Below are positions 6,613 to 36,364 of a stretch of 36,364 nucleotides of DNA, one piece after another. A model generated the notes under the pieces. The model worked only from the letters and a program-made list of their open reading frames with translations, searched no databases and was not told where the DNA came from. Source of the DNA: a virus. Lineage: Duplodnaviria; Heunggongvirae; Uroviricota; Caudoviricetes. The first letter of the stretch is position 1. The number at the start of each line of letters is the position of its first letter. A program made the translations under genes and the position numbers. The stretch is taken from the IMG/VR virus record IMGVR_UViG_2711768060_000011; one strand, 5' to 3'.

Positions 6613-8448
6613 TTACCTGCCAAAGCGCGTATAGCCAACATCATGGCTGACATCAAAACCGCTGGATCGCGTTTCCATAACCCGCATACCCGGAGGCGAA
6701 TTCACAAAAGAGACCTTGATCTCACCATCAACTTTTGGCGCAGAAGCTTTGTTAATCATGAAGGGATTCGGGCCTGTGGCACCGGAGGCGTTGTTTGACT
6801 GAGCCGGATCCACCACCGGATAAGGTGTGTATCCCCGCGCCGGTATTCCCGTCCCATAAGCATCATAAGCACCCGCGCCCCACTGCGCAGAGTTAATGGC
6901 ATCGACCGTGTCACCGGAACTGTCGGTAAACCACTCAATAATTGGCTTCAGCTTGTCCCACATATCCTGAAACCACTTAACAACCGGTCCCCAGTTATTG
7001 ATTACCATCCCCAGCGGCGACCAGGCAAAAACCTTCTTCAGAAGTTCCCGGCCAGCCTCAAAATAAGGACCAATGGTTTCCCAGAGCTTCTTGAAATAAG
7101 GTCCTACAACATCCCAGTTAGTGATAATTAATCCCGCAGCCAGGGCTATCGCCGTCGCAATCATTCCAATCGGCGTCATCGACATGATCCTGCTGACAAT
7201 ACTGATGGCACCGCCAACGCCCATCAATCCCAGTTTCAGAATCGCAAGACCGGCAGCAAGCCCGACGACGCCGCGAATAACCCGGGGATTTTCATCCGCA
7301 AACTTCGTGAATTTTTCCCCCAACTCCCCCAGCCATTGCGTGATATTTTTGGCGTCACCAGAAAATGCGCCGCCAATAGCCGCAAGGCCGTTAGTTGCGG
7401 TCCCCGTCATTGCCTCCCACAGGTTGGACAGCGTACCAAGCTGGGCCTGAACACGTTTATTCAGGCTGGCCTGTTTATTCATCTTCTGCTGGATCTGATC
7501 GTAGCCATCCTTTCCTTTATCGATCAGTGCATTGACCACCTGAAGGGTTTCGGCATCATCACCAAATATTGCCTTAAGTACACCTGTTCGCTTAACGTCG
7601 GTCAGTTTTCGCAGCTTTGCCAGTTGCCTGAACATGTTATCAAGACCGCCAAAACTTCCTTTGCCGTCAGTAAAATCGAGCTGTACCCCGAGTTTCTGGC
7701 GGGCCATGACTTTATTGACGTCCCTGATTTTCTTAACGCTTAATCCGGACTGGATAACTTTTCGCAGGGCATTACCTGCCGACTCCCCGTTCATCCCCAT
7801 CTGATCCATCATGACACTGATGGGGGCAAGACTCTGTGCAGCCTGAAGACCGTCCTTGTTCACCATCTTCAGAACAGAGCTGGTTTTAGTGAAGAATGAC
7901 AGCATGTTGGTGTCGTCAACGCCCAGATAAAACGCCTTCTGAATTGTGTCGAACAGCCCCATCATGTCTTCTGAGACCGTTCCGGTAGCATCCTGCATCT
8001 TTGCGGCAAACTCGGCAGCCGCTTCCGGTGTTTTTTTCAGTTGTACCGCAAGATAAGCTGTCGCTTTACCCACACCGCCAAGAATGTTTTCTGCCGGGAT
8101 CCCCTGACGCACCAGCATCTGCATCATGTTCTGAAAATCAGCTGTTGTACCGGGTAGCTGGTTACCCAGGCCAATAGCCAGTTTATTGATGTCCTGAAAG
8201 CGCTTTCCAACCTCGCCGTTCGCATCCATCATGGCGACTTTCAGCCCGGTGGCGGCGTTTTCCTGATCGGCATAAGATTTCAGGGAAAGCGTCAGACCCG
8301 CTGCCAGTCCGCCACCAAGCGCCAGCCCACCCTGTGACGCTTCTTCCGCCTGGCGTTTAAATCCCCGGATTTTCTTTTGCATTTTCGACAGCGCGGGAGA
8401 AAGCCTGTCGACACCGGTGATCAACGCCTTAAGCTCAAATTCAGCCAT
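6613..8448 (-). CDS. tail tape measure protein
   Basis: 611-aa ORF with long Ala/Gly/Leu-rich helical stretches and a hydrophobic segment, downstream of tube and chaperone genes. Confidence 0.85.
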   Translation of the reverse strand: MAEFELKALITGVDRLSPALSKMQKKIRGFKRQAEEASQGGLALGGGLAAGLTLSLKSYADQENAATGLKVAMMDANGEVGKRFQDINKLAIGLGNQLPGTTADFQNMMQMLVRQGIPAENILGGVGKATAYLAVQLKKTPEAAAEFAAKMQDATGTVSEDMMGLFDTIQKAFYLGVDDTNMLSFFTKTSSVLKMVNKDGLQAAQSLAPISVMMDQMGMNGESAGNALRKVIQSGLSVKKIRDVNKVMARQKLGVQLDFTDGKGSFGGLDNMFRQLAKLRKLTDVKRTGVLKAIFGDDAETLQVVNALIDKGKDGYDQIQQKMNKQASLNKRVQAQLGTLSNLWEAMTGTATNGLAAIGGAFSGDAKNITQWLGELGEKFTKFADENPRVIRGVVGLAAGLAILKLGLMGVGGAISIVSRIMSMTPIGMIATAIALAAGLIITNWDVVGPYFKKLWETIGPYFEAGRELLKKVFAWSPLGMVINNWGPVVKWFQDMWDKLKPIIEWFTDSSGDTVDAINSAQWGAGAYDAYGTGIPARGYTPYPVVDPAQSNNASGATGPNPFMINKASAPKVDGEIKVSFVNSPPGMRVMETRSSGFDVSHDVGYTRFGR

Positions 8449-8582
8449 GTGTGCGTTTCTCCTGCTCTATCCTGTTTGCCTGACTGACCAGCAAGGGAAT
8501 TTCACTGATCGGCATATTCAGCAATTCGAAGGGATTAATGCGCCAGTAGCTGGCGCAGTCAAAGAAGCGATCAGTGAGGTAT

Positions 8583-8858
8583 TCAGCCGTCAGGCTTGGA
8601 GGGAAAACCAGCCACAAGCCACGCCGCTGCATTCAGGTCTGCCGGAGACATCTGGTCGACAGAGTTTTGCGGCACTTTCGCCAGCCGCACAATGTATTTC
8701 GATACCACATGCGCCAGAAGTCTGACGGACTCATCCTGATTCATCTGGTAGGGATACCCCAGCTCGCGGACATCTTTCCCGGTGGGCTCATCAAACTCCA
8801 GTACGGAGAGTGTCTCGCCATGAGCGGTAATCGGTTTCTTTAACTCAAGCTCTTTCAT
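8583..8858 (-). CDS. tail assembly chaperone (G-like); possible frameshift extension into 8441..8632
   Basis: 91-aa ORF between tube and tape measure genes; an overlapping 63-aa ORF in another frame runs to the tape measure start. Confidence 0.5.
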   Translation of the reverse strand: MKELELKKPITAHGETLSVLEFDEPTGKDVRELGYPYQMNQDESVRLLAHVVSKYIVRLAKVPQNSVDQMSPADLNAAAWLVAGFPSKPDG

Positions 8859-9214
8859 TACTGGTAATCCCCTTCTTCACCGTGGAACTCAAGATCAACC
8901 GTCCCTTCTTCGGCATTATGGTTCGCTTCGCCGTGCAGCCAGGCAGACGACAGTACATAGACCTGACCGTTCGCCAGCTCGGCAGTGATGGTCATCTCAT
9001 CAGACGAGGTGATTTTGCTCACCGGAAAATTCTTCGGCACCTTGAAGGTCCCTTTAACATAAGGCGCACGGTGAGTTTCCTTGCGGTCCACTGAACCGTC
9101 CAGGCCGATGATGTCATCATTGACCGTCCTGTTCATGGGCACCTCAATGCCGCCGGTCAGCGATAGCTGCTGACCGTCAATTTTGAAATAACAGGTTCCC
9201 CCGATACGGGCCAT
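8858..9214 (-). CDS. contractile tail tube protein
   Basis: 118-aa ORF immediately downstream of the sheath gene (1-nt overlap), Mu L-M like order. Confidence 0.65.
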   Translation of the reverse strand: MARIGGTCYFKIDGQQLSLTGGIEVPMNRTVNDDIIGLDGSVDRKETHRAPYVKGTFKVPKNFPVSKITSSDEMTITAELANGQVYVLSSAWLHGEANHNAEEGTVDLEFHGEEGDYQ

Positions 9215-10710
9215 TATGCGGACTCCTCTGAATACTGAAGACGGAACTGGTTAACCACGGCAAAGACACGCAACTGGTTAACATAGTCAGGCGGGAACAG
9301 CGTGTTCAGGCGGTTCGGATCGCTGGCATCACGCTCCACAACCAGGTACTGCTTAAAAAGTTCGTAGTTTTCCACGATCCCCGCACGCTCAAGCTGACGG
9401 TAGGTTGCCAGCAGTTCCCCTTTGATCACCGCCGGGGTGACAATCGCCTGACCGGGACCAAAGCGGGTACCGTCGCTGGCAAGCTTGTGACGCCCGTACT
9501 TACTGGTAATGACGGATTTCAGTTTGCGCAGTACATACGCACTGGTATGCAGCGTCTCGCTGTCGAGGTAGCTGTTATCCGCAACCCCGTAAGCGTTTTT
9601 CCTGTACGTGGTGACATCACGCTGAATGCGCAGTACCCCGCTTTCGACATACGCCGTTGCCACGCCATGAGACAGCAAGGTCTGTTGTTCGGTCATCGTG
9701 AACCGTTTCCCCTTCGGCGCAGGCTGCATACCCACCAGCTCACCGGTCTGCGTGGGACGTGCCGGATCGTTGCGGATAAACACCGCTGCGCGGGCGGTAC
9801 GGCTTGCCGCCAGCTCGTCGGCAGGCGTCTGGGTGTCTTTTTCGTACCCCGCCAGGGTAATGTGCTGCTGGTTAAACTGGTCACCTGCGGTCACCAGTTC
9901 TGACAGCGTGCCGATCTTTGCCGTATACACATGACCATACAGCTGACGCGCATAGCTCCAGCGACCGCTGGTATCGTTCATCTCGGTCACCAGCGTGTTA
10001 ACGGAGGCCGTGTCGTTGAACGGCAGGCCGATATAATCAAACGGCTCATCCGCCATTGCAGCCACCGCGCCGGTGAGAACCGGAGCACCCGTTCCGGCGG
10101 TACCCGTCGCCACGGCAATCTGTACGCCCGCTGGCAGCACTTCGCCCCCACCAAAGCCGTAGTAATTGAGGCTGACAGGAATTTCATTCCCGCAAAGCCC
10201 CTTATGACGCGCGGTCAGTGTGACCACGCCTGCCGAAGATGAAGCCGTAAACGGCAGGGTCGGAACGGCATTGATGGCATCCTGGATACTGCTGGCAATC
10301 ATCGTGACGTTATCGCCGTTAGTCACCGGTGCCTGCACGCGGGTACGTCCCACATACACATTCACCGTGCCGGTTTCGGTTGCCGCCCCGGTCACCGTCA
10401 GCGTAACCGTTGCCGCCGCGCCTGTGGATTCAGGAACGGCAATCACATACAGCTCGCCAAACGGGTCAGTCTGGCGATAAGCCTCGACCATACGCGCCAG
10501 CTGACTTCCCGCACCACAAATCTGGCGTGCATAGTCTGCCGACGGCATCAGTACCAGACTGTTGGCAACAATCTCTGCACCGTTATTGGCATGACCAATC
10601 AGCAGCGATGCTCCGCTGTCCTGTGCAGTATTCGCCGCCTGGTTATCCATTTCCGCATAAAACAACGGAACCAGCGTATTCGACGGAATGGTGTTAAAGC
10701 TTATCGTCAT
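9214..10710 (-). CDS. contractile tail sheath protein
   Basis: 498-aa ORF, size and position match Mu L sheath; followed by tube gene. Confidence 0.8.
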   Translation of the reverse strand: MTISFNTIPSNTLVPLFYAEMDNQAANTAQDSGASLLIGHANNGAEIVANSLVLMPSADYARQICGAGSQLARMVEAYRQTDPFGELYVIAVPESTGAAATVTLTVTGAATETGTVNVYVGRTRVQAPVTNGDNVTMIASSIQDAINAVPTLPFTASSSAGVVTLTARHKGLCGNEIPVSLNYYGFGGGEVLPAGVQIAVATGTAGTGAPVLTGAVAAMADEPFDYIGLPFNDTASVNTLVTEMNDTSGRWSYARQLYGHVYTAKIGTLSELVTAGDQFNQQHITLAGYEKDTQTPADELAASRTARAAVFIRNDPARPTQTGELVGMQPAPKGKRFTMTEQQTLLSHGVATAYVESGVLRIQRDVTTYRKNAYGVADNSYLDSETLHTSAYVLRKLKSVITSKYGRHKLASDGTRFGPGQAIVTPAVIKGELLATYRQLERAGIVENYELFKQYLVVERDASDPNRLNTLFPPDYVNQLRVFAVVNQFRLQYSEESA

Positions 10711-18409: not shown

Positions 18410-18525
18410 TCCTGGTTAAATTTCATTTTTCGCGGGTATAAAAAAACGATGGGGCGGGCAGTCCGGAAGACGTCAGGTCACAGGGATTTGACCCGCCCCT
18501 CCCCTGTGGCAGTGGGAGCTGGTTC

Positions 18526-18876
18526 TTACTTCAACCGTTCACGGGCCGTCTTCGCCTTATGACACGGCCAGCACAGGCTCTGCAGATTGCTGTCGGCATC
18601 AGTGCCGCCATGCGCTTTAGGGATGATGTGGTCAACGGTTTTCGCCTCACGTACCACACCACCACGCAGACATAACTGACACAGTCCTTTGTCACGCTTG
18701 AGCACACGTTCACGGATAACATCCCATTTCGAACCATAACCGCGCTGGTGTCTGGACTGGCCCGGCTTGTATTGCTTCCAGCCTTCACTTTTGTGGCTTT
18801 CGCAATAGCCTGACGGGTCAGTTGTGGTATGGCGGCAGCCGCGAACACGGCAGGCTTTTGGGGTTCGTGGTGGCAT
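18526..18876 (-). CDS. HNH endonuclease (terminase-associated)
   Basis: 116-aa ORF with Cys-rich zinc-binding pairs (CRVRGC, CESH, CQLC, CWPCH) and VDHIIPKAHGG HNH core. Confidence 0.8.
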   Translation of the reverse strand: MPPRTPKACRVRGCRHTTTDPSGYCESHKSEGWKQYKPGQSRHQRGYGSKWDVIRERVLKRDKGLCQLCLRGGVVREAKTVDHIIPKAHGGTDADSNLQSLCWPCHKAKTARERLK

Positions 18877-18906
18877 TAATCGACTCTCTTTACGCTTATC
18901 AATGCA

Positions 18907-18932
18907 TAAAAAAGCCTCGCATCAGCGAGGCT
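18907..18932 (-). terminator. Rho-independent terminator (minus strand) upstream of the HNH gene
   Basis: 8-bp stem AGCCTCGC/GCGAGGCT with ATCA loop, followed on the minus strand by a U-run. Confidence 0.55.
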
Positions 18933-18986
18933 CAGTCTATCCCATGAAGGGAAATATAGAGGCGATTCCGTCCATTGGACAAGCAA

Positions 18987-19012
18987 TAAAAAACCGCCCG
19001 AAGGCGGTTTTT
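18987..19012. terminator. bidirectional Rho-independent terminator after the 192-aa cargo gene
   Basis: Stem ACCGCC/GGCGGT with CGAA loop, flanked by an A-run upstream and T-run downstream. Confidence 0.65.
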
Positions 19013-19015
19013 ACA

Positions 19016-19594
19016 TCATGCATATGCATAATTTTCTTCTGCAACAAGCTTTGCAACCTGTCTATCAGGAAGAAGTAAAACAGCCTGCTCTAGGCTTTGT
19101 TTTTCAGTGAGTAACTCTAAAAATTGGTTGGCTGTTTGCAGAACTTTTGCCACAGACCAAATTGTTAACATAATTGGAAGAGAATATATAATCAACATTA
19201 AACTATTGAAAAGCAAAACCTTATCCAAGATTTTAGCTGATTCTCGTATCGTTGCTATTAACTTCCCGTTATCACATTTCTGAAAAAGTTCAACCTCACG
19301 TTTGATCCTTGCCTGTATCTCTGGATTAGCACTGAGCCGCCTTTGAGCCCTCACTCTGTTGGGCAAAGTCATAAGGTGCAAACGATTGATTGCGTTGTTT
19401 AAGGCCTCATGTACAAGCTCAGCCGCTTGTACATCATCTTTACTTTTATTCGAAATTATTTGATTTCTAACTATATCTCTCAGTTCAAAAAGCTTATTGC
19501 GGTAATGCAAACGAACAGATGGAAGTAGTATCCTTTCGTAAATAAAATGCACTGCTGCCATACATAACAGCACATAAAAAAGCACTGTCAGCAT
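19016..19594 (-). CDS. membrane protein of unknown function (cargo gene)
   Basis: 192-aa ORF with AGGAG Shine-Dalgarno; hydrophobic N-terminal helix and a second hydrophobic segment near residue 130; low GC; followed directly by a bidirectional terminator. Confidence 0.5.
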   Translation of the reverse strand: MLTVLFYVLLCMAAVHFIYERILLPSVRLHYRNKLFELRDIVRNQIISNKSKDDVQAAELVHEALNNAINRLHLMTLPNRVRAQRRLSANPEIQARIKREVELFQKCDNGKLIATIRESAKILDKVLLFNSLMLIIYSLPIMLTIWSVAKVLQTANQFLELLTEKQSLEQAVLLLPDRQVAKLVAEENYAYA

Positions 19595-19799
19595 AGTTTC
19601 TCCTTAGGGATTAATTGTCGCTTGATCCCAGTGGCACTTGTGTTCTCGCCTGTTGATGCAGAGTTTTTTCTGCTCCAATACGACGAGCTTCCACGCTAAA
19701 ACATCTGCGCATCATACTTGCATGCCAAGACCACGCTAGGATAACAATGACACAAAGTCCATACCCAATTAGAGAGTGATCTGCTAAGCCGTCAATAAT

Positions 19800-19997
19800 T
19801 CAATGCGCTAGTATTCCTAATTCCTCTGATGGCATGCGCCAAGCTGCAATCATCAGTACAATACTTATAGTTATAGGCACTAGTTGACCGGTTGTCATGG
19901 CTTTGAGCATCACATCTCGCCATGCCTGAGCAAAACTTACTGAATGTTGCCCTTTACCTGATTTTCCACCTTTGCCCTTTGACTTACCCATTATCAT
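19800..19997 (-). CDS. small membrane protein (hypothetical)
   Basis: 65-aa ORF with Lys/Gly-rich N-terminus and one hydrophobic helix; low-GC island; coding status uncertain. Confidence 0.3.
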   Translation of the reverse strand: MIMGKSKGKGGKSGKGQHSVSFAQAWRDVMLKAMTTGQLVPITISIVLMIAAWRMPSEELGILAH

Positions 19998-20529
19998 CCA
20001 GCCGCGGTTATGATTTTAGGTAAATTCTACAGCTATAAATAACAAAATAAAACATCCACTTACTACATCTCTTCTTCCATTAGCCATATTTCTCACTTGC
20101 AAATCAAGCTTTTTTTGCACAACAAGGCATTATTCTCCTCAACTTTCTATATGTTGTGTCCCAACAGCTAACAAACAACTATCACCCACATCACATATGT
20201 AGGATGCTTAACTTTTTTAAAAGTTCATTATCACTTAACTAAGAACCATATTTTCAGACAATTATCTACAGCTGCCATCCATACTTTGCTGTATGCCTGT
20301 ATATTTTTCTTTGACTACTTATCGAGCTCATCCAAGTAATCAACAGCCGCACAGATAGGTCTCACCCGGTCCCGCCCTGTGTCAATTAACTCAACCTTGC
20401 ATGTCCTACTTGTGCGCAGTTCGTGATCAACGCCACTATCAGACATATGATTAACAGTTTGCTATACCTTGTTGGTATCTTTCGTTGCTTATATCCAGCG
20501 CTCTGCTATAGCCTAGATGTTGAGTCCTC

Positions 20530-20658
20530 CTATTCGTAACGCTTCTGATCAGCGTTCATTTGTACTTCGCTAGTACCGTATGAATATCCTAGACCGAATA
20601 CCCTAGCGGTAGCAGTGCTAAACGCAGCAGCTAGCAAGATAATCATTTCGATACCCAT
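20530..20658 (-). CDS. candidate small hydrophobic peptide (42 aa)
   Basis: ATG at 20658 preceded by GGGAG (spacer 4 nt); translation MGIEMIILLAAAFSTATARVFGLGYSYGTSEVQMNADQKRYE; in an otherwise ORF-poor low-GC stretch. Confidence 0.25.
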   Translation of the reverse strand: MGIEMIILLAAAFSTATARVFGLGYSYGTSEVQMNADQKRYE

Positions 20659-20749
20659 TGTGCTCCCACATCAGAGTAGATCTCAGCAGATTGAACAGAA
20701 TGTGCTAGGAATAACAATTCGAAAAAAGCTATCGTTCAATCCGCCCCTG

Positions 20750-21187
20750 TTAATCCAGGCATTGAGTTCTGATGTATTCCTGTAGGTAATTAACCTGTGC
20801 AGTTATCTTGTCGATTCCACTTCGGAGGCGGTAATAATTGAGTTCAGCATCTGCTGTAAGTCTTGGGCTTTCTCCATCGCCCATGCTGCTGGCTCCGGTC
20901 GTTGACTTTGCACAGGTGGCGGCGACTTGCAGCCGCTTACGCCCAGCAGAAACATCATCACGGAGACTTTCGATAGTCGCGTTAGCATCAGCAAGCTCCT
21001 TTGTATATCTGGCATCGAGTTCTGCTACATCATGTTGACGCTTCTGCATGTCAGCGATTGTGGATGTGGCCTTATCGCGCTGCTCTTTGTAGGTAATGGC
21101 GTTATCACGGTAATGATTAACCGCCCATGACAGGCAGACGATGATGCAGATAACCAGAGCGGAGATAATCGCGGTTACTCTGCTCAT
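20750..21187 (-). CDS. Rz: i-spanin Rz
   Basis: 145-aa ORF starting [34 protein letters not shown], near-identical to the lambda Rz N-terminus as recalled; 4-nt overlap with R. Confidence 0.9.
20803..20958 (-). CDS. Rz1: o-spanin Rz1 (lipoprotein embedded in the +1 frame of Rz)
   Basis: Embedded ORF starting [10 protein letters not shown] with a lipobox before Cys, followed by a Pro-rich tract ([16 protein letters not shown]) as in lambda Rz1. Confidence 0.75.
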
Positions 21188-21660
21188 ACCTCAATCTCTC
21201 TGACCATTCCGCCAGCTTCTTTGAATTTTGCAATCAGGTTGTCAGCCTTATGCTCGAACTGACCATAACCAGCCCCCGGCAGTGAAGCCCAGATATTGCT
21301 GCAACGGTCGATTGCCTGACGGATATCACCGCGATCAATCATCGGTAAAGCGCCACGTTCTTTAATCTGCTGCAATGCCACTGCGTCCTGGCTTTTGGGG
21401 GAGAAGTCTTTCAGGCCAAGCTGCTTACGGTAAGCATCCCACCAGCGTGAAAGAAGCTGATAACGTCCGGCTGCTGTTGATTTGAGTTTGGGGTTTAGCG
21501 TGACAAGCTTGCGAGGGTGATCGGAGTAATCAGTGAAGAGTTCTCCACCGACAATAACATCATAACCGTGGTTACGTGTCGGTTGTCGCCCGTTATCCGT
21601 TCCTTCTGACCATGCCACCATATCGAGGAAAGCTTTACGCTGAGGATTAAGATTTTGCAT
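21184..21660 (-). CDS. R: endolysin, lytic transglycosylase (lambda R)
   Basis: 158-aa ORF ...[45 protein letters not shown]..., near-identical to lambda R as recalled. Confidence 0.95.
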
Positions 21661-21964
21661 TTTTCACCCCTGTCAGTCGTTCCCAGAAGTACGTCAGTGC
21701 AACCGACCCCATCGCACCGCTAATCCCCGCTGTCGCGAGAATCATGTAAATACTGAATCCACTTTCGATGCTAATCAGGCCACCAATAACACCGGTGAAT
21801 CCTGATACCACTATTTGAGCCAGAGCATTTATCCAACTCCACGTTGCTTTACTCTGCTTCACATCTATCAGGTAGCGGACCAGACCGCCCCAACCTGCAA
21901 TGATCAGCAAAACGAGCCAGAACGCTCCGGCAAGGCTCTCTTTTTCGTGCATATGAATAGCCAA
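21647..21964 (-). CDS. holin (three predicted transmembrane helices)
   Basis: 105-aa ORF immediately upstream of and overlapping R; three hydrophobic helices; N-terminus MAIHMHEK has two Met codons (possible dual start). Confidence 0.7.
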   Translation of the reverse strand: MAIHMHEKESLAGAFWLVLLIIAGWGGLVRYLIDVKQSKATWSWINALAQIVVSGFTGVIGGLISIESGFSIYMILATAGISGAMGSVALTYFWERLTGVKNAKS

Positions 21965-22175
21965 TGTTTCGCCGCCGACAAAAGGCCGGGACGTTAAATG
22001 TCAGAATGCAGGCTCACGGGTTAATTTAACGACAAAGCACGGAGTTGATGCTCCCCGCAAGCCTTGAATAAAAAAGCCAGCATATGGCTGACAACAGAGG
22101 GTTAAGCAATGTCAATTCATCAGGCGAAGGCAACAAAAAGCCCCAGCAAATACCAGGGCTAGACAGATATGAATA

Positions 22176-22355
22176 CTACTGTTCTTCTATTTTTTTACTG
22201 GAAATCAATCCACTGGTCATTTCATAACCGTTTGTGTGGCCACAGTAAGGGCAAATAATTGGCTCTTTATCCTTTCCTCCTGGATAGCCTCCACTGTGCT
22301 CCCAATAAATAAACTCTTTATTGCAACTTTCATTACTACATCTTGTATTGCTCAT
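22176..22355 (-). CDS. small zinc-ribbon protein (59 aa), below the ORF-track size cutoff
   Basis: ATG at 22355 preceded by GGGAG; translation MSNTRCSNESCNKEFIYWEHSGGYPGGKDKEPIICPYCGHTNGYEMTSGLISSKKIEEQ contains CxxxxC...CxxC; between the Q terminator and the holin. Confidence 0.4.
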   Translation of the reverse strand: MSNTRCSNESCNKEFIYWEHSGGYPGGKDKEPIICPYCGHTNGYEMTSGLISSKKIEEQ

Positions 22356-22425
22356 TGCATCACTCCCTCAGTAAGTAAGGAAATAAATACATAGCATAAC
22401 CAAATCATTATTCGAAATTTGAGCA

Positions 22426-22451
22426 CAAAAAAAACCCGCTCGATGGCGGGT
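22426..22451 (-). terminator. tR'-like Rho-independent terminator downstream of Q
   Basis: On the minus strand, a 6-bp GC-rich stem (ACCCGC/GCGGGT) followed by a 9-nt U-run, about 110 nt downstream of the Q stop. Confidence 0.6.
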
Positions 22452-22490
22452 TCAAGAAGATTATCAACGGTAGACACACAAAGCCCATCG

Positions 22491-22505
22491 TTAGGATAAT
22501 CCTAA
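22491..22505. promoter_or_regulatory. perfect palindrome TTAGGATAATCCTAA in the candidate late promoter/qut region
   Basis: 15-bp palindrome between the Q stop and the tR'-like terminator; overlaps a possible -35 TTGCAT / -10 TAGGAT pair on the minus strand. Confidence 0.3.
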
Positions 22506-22558
22506 CCATATTTTTTGAAAAATGCAAGAATCATGTCGCCATCTTCGGCGAAAATCAT

Positions 22559-23311
22559 TTATCTTGTCACTCTCCTCAATTGTGTCTCAGCATATGCTTC
22601 TTCCTGCCAGCACTTTGTAACCAGTTTATCAATGACATCTGCATATCCTTTGTACCACTGATAATCCGTCAGGTCTGGTACCAGCTTCTGGACATGATGC
22701 CGCGCCAGTGTGGTTGGTAAACGGCTAAACCGGTTTCCATTGCAACGCCCACAAATCTTATAAACAGGCGTGCCATGAAGCCGGGTCCTTTTTTCATCCA
22801 GGACAATACCTTTACCCTTACACCCTCTGCACGCTGTGCTGACTTCTCCCTTACCATGACAATGCTGACATAGTTCCTTTACCCACTCTTCCTTGATAAC
22901 AGATTCCCCGCTTCTGGATTGTTTCACCACCTCGCGCAATACATTATGAAATCCAGTACCAGCACAATGCTCACAGCGAGCCTTACTTGCCGCAGACCTG
23001 GAATAATCAGCAAAGGCAAAATTCACAAGGTAAGGGATGATCTGTAACCGGATTTCTTCACTCAATTTGTTCAATGTCGGGTTATCCAGTGCCATCGCGT
23101 AATTGAGCAGACCTTCAATCGCAAACTGAGGATCCTGAACGCCAACTTTTGCCAGGAATAAGGTAAACCCAAGCGGTGCTTTCGACTGCACCATCCCCTG
23201 TGCAGCCATCACATCCGTAATCGTTAAACCACCTGAGCCTGTCGCCGGTGCGTCATCACTCAATTTTGGAGATTTTGGGGAGTAATATTTTGGTAAGGCT
23301 TCAAGGTTCAT
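22559..23311 (-). CDS. Q: late-gene antiterminator Q (lambda Q family)
   Basis: 250-aa ORF with YSPKSPKLSD...TDVMAAQGM N-terminus, ADYSRSAA...RCEHCAGTG and CGRCNG zinc motifs, and ...VTR C-terminus resembling lambda Q; followed by a terminator. Confidence 0.8.
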   Translation of the reverse strand: MNLEALPKYYSPKSPKLSDDAPATGSGGLTITDVMAAQGMVQSKAPLGFTLFLAKVGVQDPQFAIEGLLNYAMALDNPTLNKLSEEIRLQIIPYLVNFAFADYSRSAASKARCEHCAGTGFHNVLREVVKQSRSGESVIKEEWVKELCQHCHGKGEVSTACRGCKGKGIVLDEKRTRLHGTPVYKICGRCNGNRFSRLPTTLARHHVQKLVPDLTDYQWYKGYADVIDKLVTKCWQEEAYAETQLRRVTR

Positions 23312-29253: not shown

Positions 29254-29940
29254 GTGAAAACACTGGCAGAACGATTAAAGATAGGTAGAGAGAAAGCTGG
29301 CATGAGCCAAGCTCAACTAGCTGAAAAAATTGGACTTTCACAACAATCTGTAGCCAAAATAGAGAATGGCGAAACTCTACAACCGCGCAAAATTAAAGAA
29401 ATTGCAAAAGTTTTAGGTGTATCACAAAAGTGGTTACAACTTGGTATTGAAGACAACGCATCCATACCTGATCTTGTTGTAAAAGAAGCAGAAAGCACCG
29501 CATTAGACCCCGATATTTTCGTAAACATTCCTGTTTTAGATGTCGAGTTATCGGCAGGTAACGGATGTCTGGCTGAAATAGTTGAATCAGCTATTGACTG
29601 GTTTCCGTTAAGAAGAGCAGATTTGAGAAAATCTGGCGTATGTGCATCTAATGCCAAGATCGTACAAATATGGGGGAACAGTTTATTACCGGTTCTCAAT
29701 AATGGAGATCTTGTTGCCGTTGATATTTCTCAAACCGTTCCTATTCGTGATGGCGATCTTTATGCCGTACGAGATGGTGTATTGCTAAGGGTTAAAATAC
29801 TTATCAACTTACCTGACGGTGGCTTGATTCTTAGAAGCTTCAACAAAGATGAGTACCCAGATGAAATACTCACCTTTGAAGATAGACGAGCCAGAATTCA
29901 TGTTATAGGTAGGGTATTCTGGTCATCGCGAACTTGGTAA
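29254..29940 (+). CDS. cI-like prophage repressor (HTH_XRE plus S24 LexA-type autopeptidase); GTG start
   Basis: N-terminal HTH (MSQAQLAEKIGLSQQSVAKIENGE), Ala-Gly cleavage site (LSAGNG), C-terminal S24-like Ser (GNSLLP) and Lys (LLRVKIL); AGAGGG Shine-Dalgarno before GTG at 29254. Confidence 0.9.
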   Translation: MKTLAERLKIGREKAGMSQAQLAEKIGLSQQSVAKIENGETLQPRKIKEIAKVLGVSQKWLQLGIEDNASIPDLVVKEAESTALDPDIFVNIPVLDVELSAGNGCLAEIVESAIDWFPLRRADLRKSGVCASNAKIVQIWGNSLLPVLNNGDLVAVDISQTVPIRDGDLYAVRDGVLLRVKILINLPDGGLILRSFNKDEYPDEILTFEDRRARIHVIGRVFWSSRTW

Positions 29941-30942
29941 TGCATCGAAAAGCATTTCTTCAGAAATAATTTTAAGTTTTGCACCATTATCATCCCTATA
30001 AGATATAGCCTTTTCGATCTTCCTTCCGTGACTAGAGAATTTCCAATCACGGGAGGAAAGCGTCCCAATTACTAAAAAATCCAACTTTTGAGTAATTCCA
30101 CTACTGATGTTCCCACCAGCATTTTTAATCAAATTTTCAACTACGGCTCTCTTTCCTGCAACAAAAGTGCCTGTAAGACAATAGGTTTTACCCTCTAACT
30201 CTATCGAAGCCCCTACATCAATAGGCAGCCTGGTCGCCAAACCATCCACCACCCCACTTTCCAAGTCACATCCTGTGAAGTCTACTAATGCCTTATGTAG
30301 AGTTAAACTCTCATCTTCAGTAATAACACCATCTTTAAGAATTTCCTTTACAAGTGCATAAAGTTTTTTTCCTGGGTAGTTGTTCTTCAAAGCTCCATTT
30401 TGCTCAAGCCACCAATTAAGATATCTTATTTCTTCTTGAGTTAAGTTCCGATCAGCAATTAATCCTTTACATAGTCCATTAAGTAAATGGACATCTACAT
30501 CCTTGGAGTAAAAATCAATTTCAGGGATATCAAGAATTTCCCTCTGTATTTGGAGAAGGCTATTTTTAAGGTCATCACGTTCTTCTGATGTGATTATTCC
30601 ATCCGCAAGAATATCCGACACCCGAGCAGATAGACTTTTTATAACTCCATTATTGATAATCTGCTTTGCTTCAAGTAACCATGTATCTAAGTAAAGAACC
30701 TCCTCTTCACGGACAACTCCATCTGCAATGATTCCATCAATGATGCTAATCAAGTTAGCAAATAACTTGTCCCGGTTTCGTGTAATTAAAAGCGTAAAGC
30801 GCGTCTTCCATACAACCTCCTTTTTTTGATAATCCTTGCGCTCCTTGGCTACTCGTTCAAACCACATAAAGTTGTTGGCAACATTCAAAACCACAACTAA
30901 ATTACAACTTAAAGGTGTTAAGACAACGAACAGGCAGGACAC
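29923..30942 (-). CDS. repeat-containing protein with C-terminal BRCT domain; likely true start at ATG 30867
   Basis: C-terminal ~90 aa (KTYCLTGTFVAGKRAVVENLIKNAGGNISSGITQKLDFLVIGT...) resembles the LigA-type BRCT domain; four ~45-aa repeats sharing ...L.DG.IT.EE...L...L; the first codon at 30942 is GTG and the N-terminal extension overlaps operator-like motifs. Confidence 0.6.
   Translation of the reverse strand: MSCLFVVLTPLSCNLVVVLNVANNFMWFERVAKERKDYQKKEVVWKTRFTLLITRNRDKLFANLISIIDGIIADGVVREEEVLYLDTWLLEAKQIINNGVIKSLSARVSDILADGIITSEERDDLKNSLLQIQREILDIPEIDFYSKDVDVHLLNGLCKGLIADRNLTQEEIRYLNWWLEQNGALKNNYPGKKLYALVKEILKDGVITEDESLTLHKALVDFTGCDLESGVVDGLATRLPIDVGASIELEGKTYCLTGTFVAGKRAVVENLIKNAGGNISSGITQKLDFLVIGTLSSRDWKFSSHGRKIEKAISYRDDNGAKLKIISEEMLFDALPSSR
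30866..30930. promoter_or_regulatory. OL-like operator cluster upstream of the plus-strand early operon
   Basis: Same motif as the right operator region: AAAGTTGTTGG (30868-30878), CCACAACTAA and ATTACAACTT (30891-30910). Confidence 0.5.
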
Positions 30943-35311: not shown

Positions 35312-36364
35312 ATGAATACAAATGTAGGGCAGATCACATTAATTGATCTAATTTCAATGCTTGAGAGAAAAGAACTAATAATTAACAAGGATTATCAGCG
35401 CGGAAATGGAATATGGCCACCATTTGCAAAGAGTTATTTCATAGACACTATTCTAGAAAATTATCCTTTCCCCAAAATATATTTATATCAAGCATTTGAC
35501 AGGACAAACGAAAGGCCAATTAAAGAAATTGTTGATGGCCAGCAACGAGTAACAACTCTCGTTGATTTTTATAAAAACAAATTTGCACTTACTTCGGCAT
35601 CGAAGAAGTATTCTGGCATGTATTTTAATGATTTGCCCGATGATGCAAAAAGATGTTTTATTAGTTATCAAGTTGAAACATCCACAGTTTATTCAGCAAG
35701 CAGGGCTGAATTACTCGAAATGTTTAGACGAATGAATGCTTATACATCTCCACTAACATCAGCAGAAAAACGGCATGCTACTTTTCAAGGTGCATTTAAG
35801 TGGTATATCGTTGAAAAAGCAGATACCCACGCTGAGCTTTTAGAGATTTATAATATATTGTCACCCAAAATATTAGCCAGAATGGGTGATGCAGAATTTA
35901 TCTCAGATATGGCAATACTCATTGATAGAGGGCTTTGTTCAAAGTCGGCACCTGCAACCGAAGCTATTTATAAAAAATACGATGATGATTTTCCTTTAGA
36001 GAATATCTATAACGAGAGAATTGATTATTTCTTCAATTTATTGGCGGAAGATTTTTCCGAATTACGTAATTCATTTATGATGAAATCGTATGTTGTTCAC
36101 TCATTATTTTGTGCTATTACCGCATTAAAATTTGGTTTCCCCGGAAGTGATGAACTTGAAAATGAACTCGGTTTCACGGCTAACCCAAACTTTGATGTAA
36201 ATCCTTCCCGTGTAATTCCGATTCTCTTAGAGATGGCTGATGCCCATGAAATTCAGGACGAAGATGGCCCTTATGCAGCCTATGTAACAAGTTGTTTATC
36301 ATCAACAACCAAGCTACCACAACGAACCACGCGCACAAAAGAACTGATTAAAGCATTCTTATGA
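35312..36364 (+). CDS. DUF262 (GmrSD N-terminal / ParB-like) domain protein, stand-alone
   Basis: 350-aa AT-rich ORF with AGGAGA Shine-Dalgarno; N-terminal DYQRGNGIW and DGQQR motifs diagnostic of DUF262; no HNH/DUF1524 motif seen in the C-terminal half; stop is the last codon of the window. Confidence 0.75.
   Translation: MNTNVGQITLIDLISMLERKELIINKDYQRGNGIWPPFAKSYFIDTILENYPFPKIYLYQAFDRTNERPIKEIVDGQQRVTTLVDFYKNKFALTSASKKYSGMYFNDLPDDAKRCFISYQVETSTVYSASRAELLEMFRRMNAYTSPLTSAEKRHATFQGAFKWYIVEKADTHAELLEIYNILSPKILARMGDAEFISDMAILIDRGLCSKSAPATEAIYKKYDDDFPLENIYNERIDYFFNLLAEDFSELRNSFMMKSYVVHSLFCAITALKFGFPGSDELENELGFTANPNFDVNPSRVIPILLEMADAHEIQDEDGPYAAYVTSCLSSTTKLPQRTTRTKELIKAFL

Follow-up and report, generated by a model that had tools for sequence, protein, structure and literature searches.

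The window analysed here is the whole of the 36,364-nucleotide virus record IMGVR_UViG_2711768060_000011 (Caudoviricetes), a full-length, intact prophage of the e14 family, and our subject is the AT-rich island (19016..20750) that separates its spanin gene Rz from the HNH endonuclease and terminase genes. It is well supported that this island is a moron lodged in the slot between Rz and the HNH–terminase genes, and that its content is the relic of a spanin pair together with a pair of membrane-protein genes (2TM and 1TM) known from the anti-phage locus of P2_AC1, but here devoid of the TIR gene that accompanies them in AC1. Beyond this, we favour, with a probability of roughly 0.6, the reading in which the dead spanin pair is followed by a mobile, TIR-less cassette whose two membrane proteins would together keep other phages from infecting the cell, or abort the infection. 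A locus that was annotated as hypothetical proteins, with a possible toxin or small RNA (sRNA), can now be described as a delimited cassette and a pseudogene relic in a cargo slot that is polymorphic.

All genes in this part of the window lie on the minus strand and read, in order, antiterminator Q, holin, lysozyme, Rz/Rz1, island, HNH, TerS and TerL. Both flanks are matched to Pfam families (PF05119 for TerS; see Table 1 for Rz and HNH), and the low GC content that a first-pass annotation, made from the sequence alone, had attributed to the island holds: 0.403, against 0.507 for the whole window, 0.498 for the lysis genes and 0.555 for HNH-TerS-TerL, i.e., about two standard deviations under the mean of same-size segments, with other stretches of the window lower still. 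A near-identical prophage, located at icd in Escherichia coli FHI_NMBU_10, has intE/xisE, ymfL, ymfR, ymfQ, pinE and mcrA. Compared, as had been proposed, with related prophages, the island is not conserved among them: it occurs in six of 5,426 complete E. coli genomes (99.6–99.9% identity), versus 353 of these genomes for the backbone (the first 25 kb of the window, at least 80% covered), so that it does not behave as a structural or packaging sequence conserved across related phages. Moreover, megablast of the island against GenBank phage records gave no match. Prophages with the same flanks carry other cargo in this slot, namely a gene for an 83-residue hypothetical protein, one for a DUF2441 protein, a GrlR-family gene, two unrelated hypotheticals in the type strain ATCC 11775 and, in a related E. 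coli prophage and on the opposite strand, the bor homologue iss, which bears out the earlier suggestion of variable cargo at a bor-type position. With its deviant base composition, its presence/absence polymorphism and its own terminator, the island has the hallmarks of a moron. It shares with the lambda bor and Iss morons the slot, the AT-richness, the terminator of its own and the variable presence; unlike them, it encodes two co-oriented inner-membrane proteins instead of a single outer-membrane lipoprotein on the other strand. A Bor/Iss homologue as content of the island was rejected, there being no sequence relationship.

The content of the island had been described as unrecognised, which proved wrong, since both proteins match PADLOC and PHROG models strongly. 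The 192-residue protein with two hydrophobic segments is encoded where it had been reported; this 1TM protein matches the PADLOC model PDLC02977 (“1TM-TIR”, E = 7e-79) over residues 1–187, as well as phrog_24550 (E = 4e-65; function unknown), and is 53% identical over its full length to P2_AC1 gp03 (185 residues). Similarly, the 2TM gene, when a premature TGA is read through as Arg, yields a full-length match to PDLC02978 (“2TM-TIR”, E = 5.8e-57), another match to phrog_33772 (function unknown) and a full-length identity of 62% to P2_AC1 gp04 (126 residues). A Lys/Gly-rich protein of 65 residues (19800..19997) had been taken for a separate product; it corresponds to the first half of the 126/128-residue 2TM gene, cut by a CGA-to-TGA change at 19802, with the rest (62 codons) still in frame down to 19611.

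The premature stop is peculiar to the window. At 19802, the coding strand has T in the window and C in the seven other copies compared (six complete E. coli genomes and one IMG/VR contig), and this is the single base by which the window differs from NZ_CP046539 over 1,901 bases. In each of the six genomes, two hypothetical proteins are annotated below the island match, three of the genomes having been shown to carry a whole 2TM gene (126 or 128 residues), and the 126-residue RefSeq protein WP_000520336 is annotated at the site of the 65-residue open reading frame (ORF) of the window. The stop falls in a short loop past the first transmembrane helix (the ORF of the window ends at codon 66), and the second helix is lost together with the tail RRCFSxEARRIGxEKTxxQQ...LGTSD, where conservation of the protein is strongest. 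There are good grounds to consider the copy of the pair in the window as broken, and because the TGA leaves 2TM with neither its second helix nor its conserved tail, the module is, judging from its sequence, most likely inactive in this prophage.

As to their layout, 2TM begins with a Lys-rich N-terminus (+7/−1), followed by helices at about residues 38–57 and 73–92, an acidic loop between them and a conserved basic tail, so that an N-in/C-in hairpin is predicted from hydropathy and charge distribution. 1TM has an N-terminal transmembrane helix (residues 1–20, ending with the invariant H16-x-x-Y19-E20), a basic helical cytoplasmic domain of about 105 residues (+21/−13, modelled as a helical bundle), a second hydrophobic helix (about residues 128–152, with N130 and P140 invariant) and a short C-terminal tail. 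Its AlphaFold2 model is all helical, with a predicted local distance difference test score (pLDDT) of 83.

Table 1. Features of the island and of its flanks, with positions in the window.
Feature	Position	Strand	Remarks
Antiterminator Q	22559..23311	-	
Rz i-spanin	20750..21187	-	Rz1 embedded (20803..21015); PF03245 Phage_lysis, E = 3.7e-37; upstream edge of cargo slot
Decayed second spanin pair, mEp390 gp51/gp52 type	20252..20658	-	Detected by blastn, tblastn and PHROG
42-residue ORF	20530..20658	-	50% identical to mEp390 gp51 residues 1–42
Conserved leader	19998..20157	-	160 bp long, upstream of 2TM start; homology to Klebsiella begins at 20157
Candidate sigma-70 promoter	TTGATT 20107..20102; GCTAAT 20084..20079	-	Spacer of 17 nucleotides
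2TM gene	19611..19997	-	126 residues from ATG at 19991, 128 from 19997; interrupted in the window
Premature TGA stop	19800..19802	-	CGA (Arg) in relatives
1TM gene	19016..19594	-	192 residues; AAGGAG ribosome-binding site; begins 16 nucleotides past 2TM stop
Intrinsic terminator of cassette	18989..19012	-	10-bp stem, then T-run
Second intrinsic terminator, upstream of HNH	18912..18933	-	9-bp stem (6 GC pairs), then T-run
HNH endonuclease	18526..18876	-	PF01844, E = 2.2e-16; first packaging gene, downstream edge of slot

The limits of the cassette can be read from its homologues. Nucleotide homology (84%) between the window and prophages of Klebsiella aerogenes spans exactly 20157..18983, and that to a P2-like copy 20020..18985. 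From the former limits, the mobile unit consists of the leader, 2TM, 1TM and the terminator, i.e., a mobile cassette of 1.18 kb (20157..18983). The first-pass annotation had closed the island with two terminators, and two strong hairpins are indeed found there on the minus strand, the first of which is kept with the cassette in the Klebsiella and P2-like copies and has its equivalent in AC1. Located past 1TM, both hairpins would stop transcripts made in the lysogen. A terminator scan found none between Rz and the cassette, so late transcripts include the cassette; from established lambda biology, Q-modified late transcription is expected to pass both hairpins. Within the leader, the hexamers TTGATT and GCTAAT are invariant between E. 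coli and Klebsiella, the spacer between them being variable, and a second −10-like box (TAGAAT, 20029..20024) reads TAAAAT in Klebsiella, while AC1 has TTGACT-N18-TACTAT at the equivalent position; these hexamers may act as a promoter. Just 3' of the cassette, an IS3 element splits HNH in two of the six island genomes, FHI_NMBU_10 and JNEC-KY176 (8149..9311 in locus L001; 6155..7317 in locus L002), and HNH is whole in the window and in strain RM7190.

The system from which the two genes are known was described by Rousset et al. (2022; PMC9122126), who found that a three-gene clone from AC1 protects E. coli C against lambda, LF82_P8 and P2. It is listed in their supplement as “2TM + 1TM + TIR” (plasmid pFD240), and according to the authors' proposal, the membrane proteins are activated by a nucleotide messenger that TIR produces. 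The “1TM-TIR” and “2TM-TIR” models of PADLOC derive from this locus, named Rst_2TM_1TM_TIR in DefenseFinder, and both tools define the system as three genes. Our literature searches turned up no later study of the AC1 system or of these accessions, and in one survey the system was hardly detectable (bioRxiv 10.1101/2024.10.26.620412). The gene order in P2_AC1 is gpA, gp04 (2TM), gp03 (1TM), a terminator, 240 bp, gp02 (315 residues; TIR_2, E = 7.5e-10) and gp01. Since an intrinsic terminator lies directly 3' of 1TM and is followed by 240 bp before the TIR gene (L005, 3559..3797), the latter is probably a separate transcription unit. Beyond TIR and outside the published clone, gp01 encodes a protein of 305 residues with no Pfam match.

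In the window, the 2TM and 1TM components of this system are present, but the adjacent TIR gene is absent: 1TM is followed by the terminators and then by HNH, a tblastn search with the AC1 TIR protein returned no match in the whole window, and no TIR gene is annotated in the equivalent prophage of NZ_CP046539. Loci of the three-gene AC1 type occur in 14 E. coli genomes, none of which is among the six island genomes, and their identity of at least 99.8% indicates a single lineage. The cassette and the AC1 system are alike in having homologous membrane proteins, with the same order, strand and tight spacing, in the terminator 3' of 1TM, in their low GC (0.39 for the AC1 locus) and in being prophage cargo; they differ in the lack of TIR and the interrupted 2TM here, and in their location, between Rz and HNH–terminase in an e14-family prophage versus between gpA and the portal gene in P2. 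Our survey of relatives (see below) suggests that TIR is peculiar to AC1 and not part of the conserved unit. With lambda RexAB, P22 SieA and T4 Imm/Sp, small (pro)phage membrane proteins that act against other phages, the resemblance is one of analogy only: homology to them is not detectable, PADLOC gave the 2TM-TIR and 1TM-TIR models only and, unlike in those systems, both partners are membrane proteins here.

To describe the pair across its relatives, we collected 49 loci, corresponding to 33 lineages (<90% identity), from IMG/VR, metagenomes, GTDB and assemblies, the metagenome scan relying on a narrow alignment. In 47 of the 49 loci, 2TM immediately precedes 1TM, the two exceptions being a contig end and a degraded copy; the genes are on the same strand and 16 nucleotides apart in the window, and several distant members have overlapping start and stop codons. 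An AC1-type TIR gene, on the other hand, is restricted to AC1 and two near-identical IMG/VR copies. The neighbour families found in at least three of the 33 lineages are phage core genes only (gpA, gpP, portal, HNH, TerS, TerL), and the non-core neighbours sampled include DUF3800, SNase, DinB, an S24 repressor and a serine recombinase. Six TIR-less P2-like phages carry the pair between gpA and the portal gene, less than 500 bp from the latter, and in three of them it provides the sole ORFs of at least 80 residues in this interval, which is a defence hotspot of Rousset et al. (2022). Elsewhere, the pair is inserted between Q and the holins (one lambdoid group, L020–L025), between the lysis genes and HNH–terminase (the window, the K. 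aerogenes prophages and a third prophage contig, L012) or between int and BRCT-cI (a Shewanella P2-like prophage). The ratio of nonsynonymous to synonymous substitution rates (dN/dS) is 0.09 for 2TM and 0.08 for 1TM between the TIR-less E. coli and Klebsiella copies, and 0.044 and 0.068 for the two genes between AC1 and a TIR-less P2-like copy. Altogether, that the evolutionarily conserved unit is the pair and not the trio has solid support.

The family is large. A word-indexed search recovered 44 close clusters, nearly all of them from Enterobacterales where the source organism is named, whereas an HMMER profile search reached 966 clusters (at 50% identity) at E ≤ 1e-3 and 726 at E ≤ 1e-10, of which ten out of ten sampled match the PADLOC 1TM model. 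Named members include Avibacterium and Shewanella, and the representative genomes of GTDB (185,579 species) yielded one locus. Most of the copies that could be located are in prophages, at defence or moron hotspots.

According to our favoured reading, 2TM and 1TM would form a complex in the inner membrane, expressed in the lysogen from a promoter that the cassette brings with it, and Q-modified late transcription would read through the cassette terminators. The cytoplasmic helical domain of 1TM would serve for sensing or regulation, and the partner acting on the membrane would be the 2TM hairpin, which is small and of holin size, a division of labour to which we give about even odds; acting together, the two would then stop other phages from infecting the cell, or abort the infection. 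The odds are likewise about even that the pair alone is an anti-phage or exclusion module. The earlier suggestion of a membrane-acting exclusion module stands in so far as the two proteins are homologues (62% and 53% identity) of membrane proteins from a protective AC1 cassette. Homology, anatomy, cassette limits, lack of TIR, conservation and selection are thus direct results, and defence without TIR is inferred, as are promoter use, complex formation and the sensor and effector roles.

Several observations weigh against such a reading. The sole phenotype was obtained with all three AC1 genes together, so that defence could reside wholly in TIR. Neither Pfam nor NCBIfam returned anything significant for 2TM, 1TM or their distant relatives, profile searches of PDB sequences with the pair gave nothing, and fold comparison produced generic helix-bundle matches only, hence no link to a characterised effector. 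The putative promoter is a conserved 8/12 match, and a generic promoter scan called neither site, while the nonsense codon at 19802 could be a sequencing error. Furthermore, the lambdoid pair adjoins lysis genes, which is also compatible with a role in lysis. Finally, some distant pairs (e.g., those on the metagenome contigs L057, 4639..5525, and L034, 4603..5501) lie in seemingly non-mobile chromosome, by rpmB/rpmG or near glyQS, which is unusual for defence genes and at odds with cargo confined to prophages.

Among the alternatives, the pair could serve the lytic cycle of the phage itself, either through the timing or inhibition of lysis, in the manner of a holin/antiholin, or through exclusion during lytic growth. 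Lambdoid copies indeed lie right after Q and before the holins (L020–L025) or right after the spanins (the window, L012 and L026–28), the lack of a terminator between Rz and the cassette places the latter on late transcripts, and 2TM recalls a class II holin by its size, its predicted N-in/C-in topology and its charged C-terminus. We nonetheless deem this role unlikely, because P2-like pairs are found between gpA and the portal gene or by int/cI, far from any lysis gene, the cassette has its own terminator and conserved leader, and most phages whose lysis cassettes are identical lack the pair; in any case, the junctions Q|S and Rz|terminase are classic moron slots.

It is also improbable that the pair is the effector arm of a TIR or other signalling system, which, without TIR in cis, would be either a non-functional remnant or dependent on a host-encoded sensor. 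This would agree with the messenger proposed by Rousset et al. (2022) to activate the membrane proteins and with the three-gene definition of DefenseFinder and PADLOC, and the nonsense mutation of the window copy is what a decaying remnant might show. Yet, the other copies examined have the whole gene, TIR is absent outside the near-clonal AC1 locus and, in TIR-less loci, both genes are under strong purifying selection. Moreover, the cassette moves as a leader, two genes and a terminator, and even in AC1 a terminator and 240 bp part the pair from TIR. Third, the absence of defence-type domains and the distant members in non-mobile chromosomal neighbourhoods could point to a lysogenic-conversion or housekeeping membrane module (e.g., for envelope stress or transport) that mobile elements merely carry. 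To this we attach little weight, since prophages, at their defence or moron hotspots, account for most located copies and the distribution is patchy and rare, with six of 5,426 E. coli genomes and a single locus among the representatives of 185,579 species.

The upstream part of the island (19998..20750) had been presented as some 750 bp free of ORFs. No ORF of at least 60 residues is indeed found on either strand, but the stretch is far from empty, as it holds the leader of the cassette and a decayed spanin pair. The distant blastn search against a phage collection matched no part of the island other than this relic, of which 20284..20658 aligns with the spanin genes of mEp390, SaltyDalty and HK639, and tblastn with mEp390 gp51/gp52 recovered three segments (E = 3.6e-15 and 3.2e-8). 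On the i-spanin side, residues 1–42 (20658..20533) are followed by a frame shift and by residues 50–82 (20512..20414) with two in-frame stops; on the o-spanin side (20389..20252, residues 2–44), there is one stop and the lipobox Cys has become Arg. The relic aligns, in the same gene order and with identities of 39–61% for amino acids and 68–78% for nucleotides, to both genes of the separate-type spanins of mEp390, HK639 and SaltyDalty, from which it differs by the frame shift, the three in-frame stops and the lost lipobox Cys that make it a pseudogene: it has neither the intact i-spanin nor the o-spanin lipobox Cys of a two-component spanin. The functional spanins of this prophage are the lambda-type Rz/Rz1 upstream, and the relic is probably a recombination scar. 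A hidden or decayed TIR gene in the same 750 bp was a candidate that we rejected, given the negative tblastn search with the AC1 TIR protein.

The identification of the relic settles the nature of the 42-residue ORF, for which a toxin-like peptide had been considered. It matches phrog_1026 (Rz-like spanin, E = 5.7e-5) and represents the N-terminal transmembrane fragment of the dead i-spanin, with its ribosome-binding site retained; since 20252..20658 is a dead spanin pair, the ORF is not a toxin gene, and we rejected it as such on seeing that the remainder of the gene is frameshifted and riddled with stops. As for an sRNA locus, also considered at first, an E-value scan of 18500..22600 against Rfam gave sub-threshold matches only, all of them on the terminators, and none inside 19.1–20.75 kb. 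These matches (Betaproteobacteria toxic sRNA, rsmX, OmrA-B and SorY; 18906..19100, minus strand) score far under the gathering score and are best read as a generic resemblance to a hairpin plus U-tract. We thus consider it highly improbable that the ORF-poor stretch harbours a gene for a small toxic peptide or for an sRNA: the ribosome-binding site and hydrophobic helix that would speak for it belong to the head of a spanin pseudogene, Rfam matches nothing in the stretch and the rest is the leader of the cassette.

Between Q and the holin, a second low-GC cargo slot (21965..22558, minus strand; GC 0.41) has a Cys-rich (CxxC...CxxC) ORF of 59 residues (22176..22355), with no Pfam or PADLOC match, flanked by terminator-like hairpins (22453..22432 and 22160..22139). 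In this slot, which holds the 2TM-1TM pair in the lambdoid phages L020–L025, the type-strain prophage carries another gene (111 residues). At the attachment-site end of the prophage, a DUF262-type ORF by the integrase (35312..36364, plus strand, reaching the end of the window) matches the PADLOC models NsnA (E = 8.5e-32) and PD-T4-2_A (E = 9.5e-14) and has the appearance of another candidate defence locus; NZ_CP046539 has one more hypothetical gene after it. Lastly, a BRCT-domain gene adjoins a cI-like XRE repressor in another low-GC stretch (29923..30813, minus strand, and 29254..29940, plus strand), with a weak PADLOC match to PDC-S48 (E = 2.4e-7), and in a Shewanella algae P2-like prophage (L053/L054), a BRCT gene adjoins both cI and the 2TM-1TM pair.

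Because the two proteins are already in defence databases, the island does not reveal a categorically new system. What is new is that TIR is dispensable for the conservation of the pair and that the family is large, which reframes a catalogued system. Tentatively, and at somewhat less than even odds, the pair might be a complete and widespread membrane-only anti-phage module (about 1,000 clusters, mostly in Gammaproteobacteria prophage hotspots), with the AC1 TIR as an independent neighbour system or a lineage add-on; current tools, which require a TIR gene, miss a pair-only module. Should the pair be sufficient by itself, “2TM-1TM-TIR” is mis-defined, and three-gene rules would miss nearly all of this family of about 1,000 clusters. 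The window itself offers a natural knockout allele (the TGA), for which the near-identical intact alleles of sequenced strains are a ready control. If the pair does act by itself, it would represent a new membrane-only mechanism of immunity, approachable with a construct of 1.2 kb.

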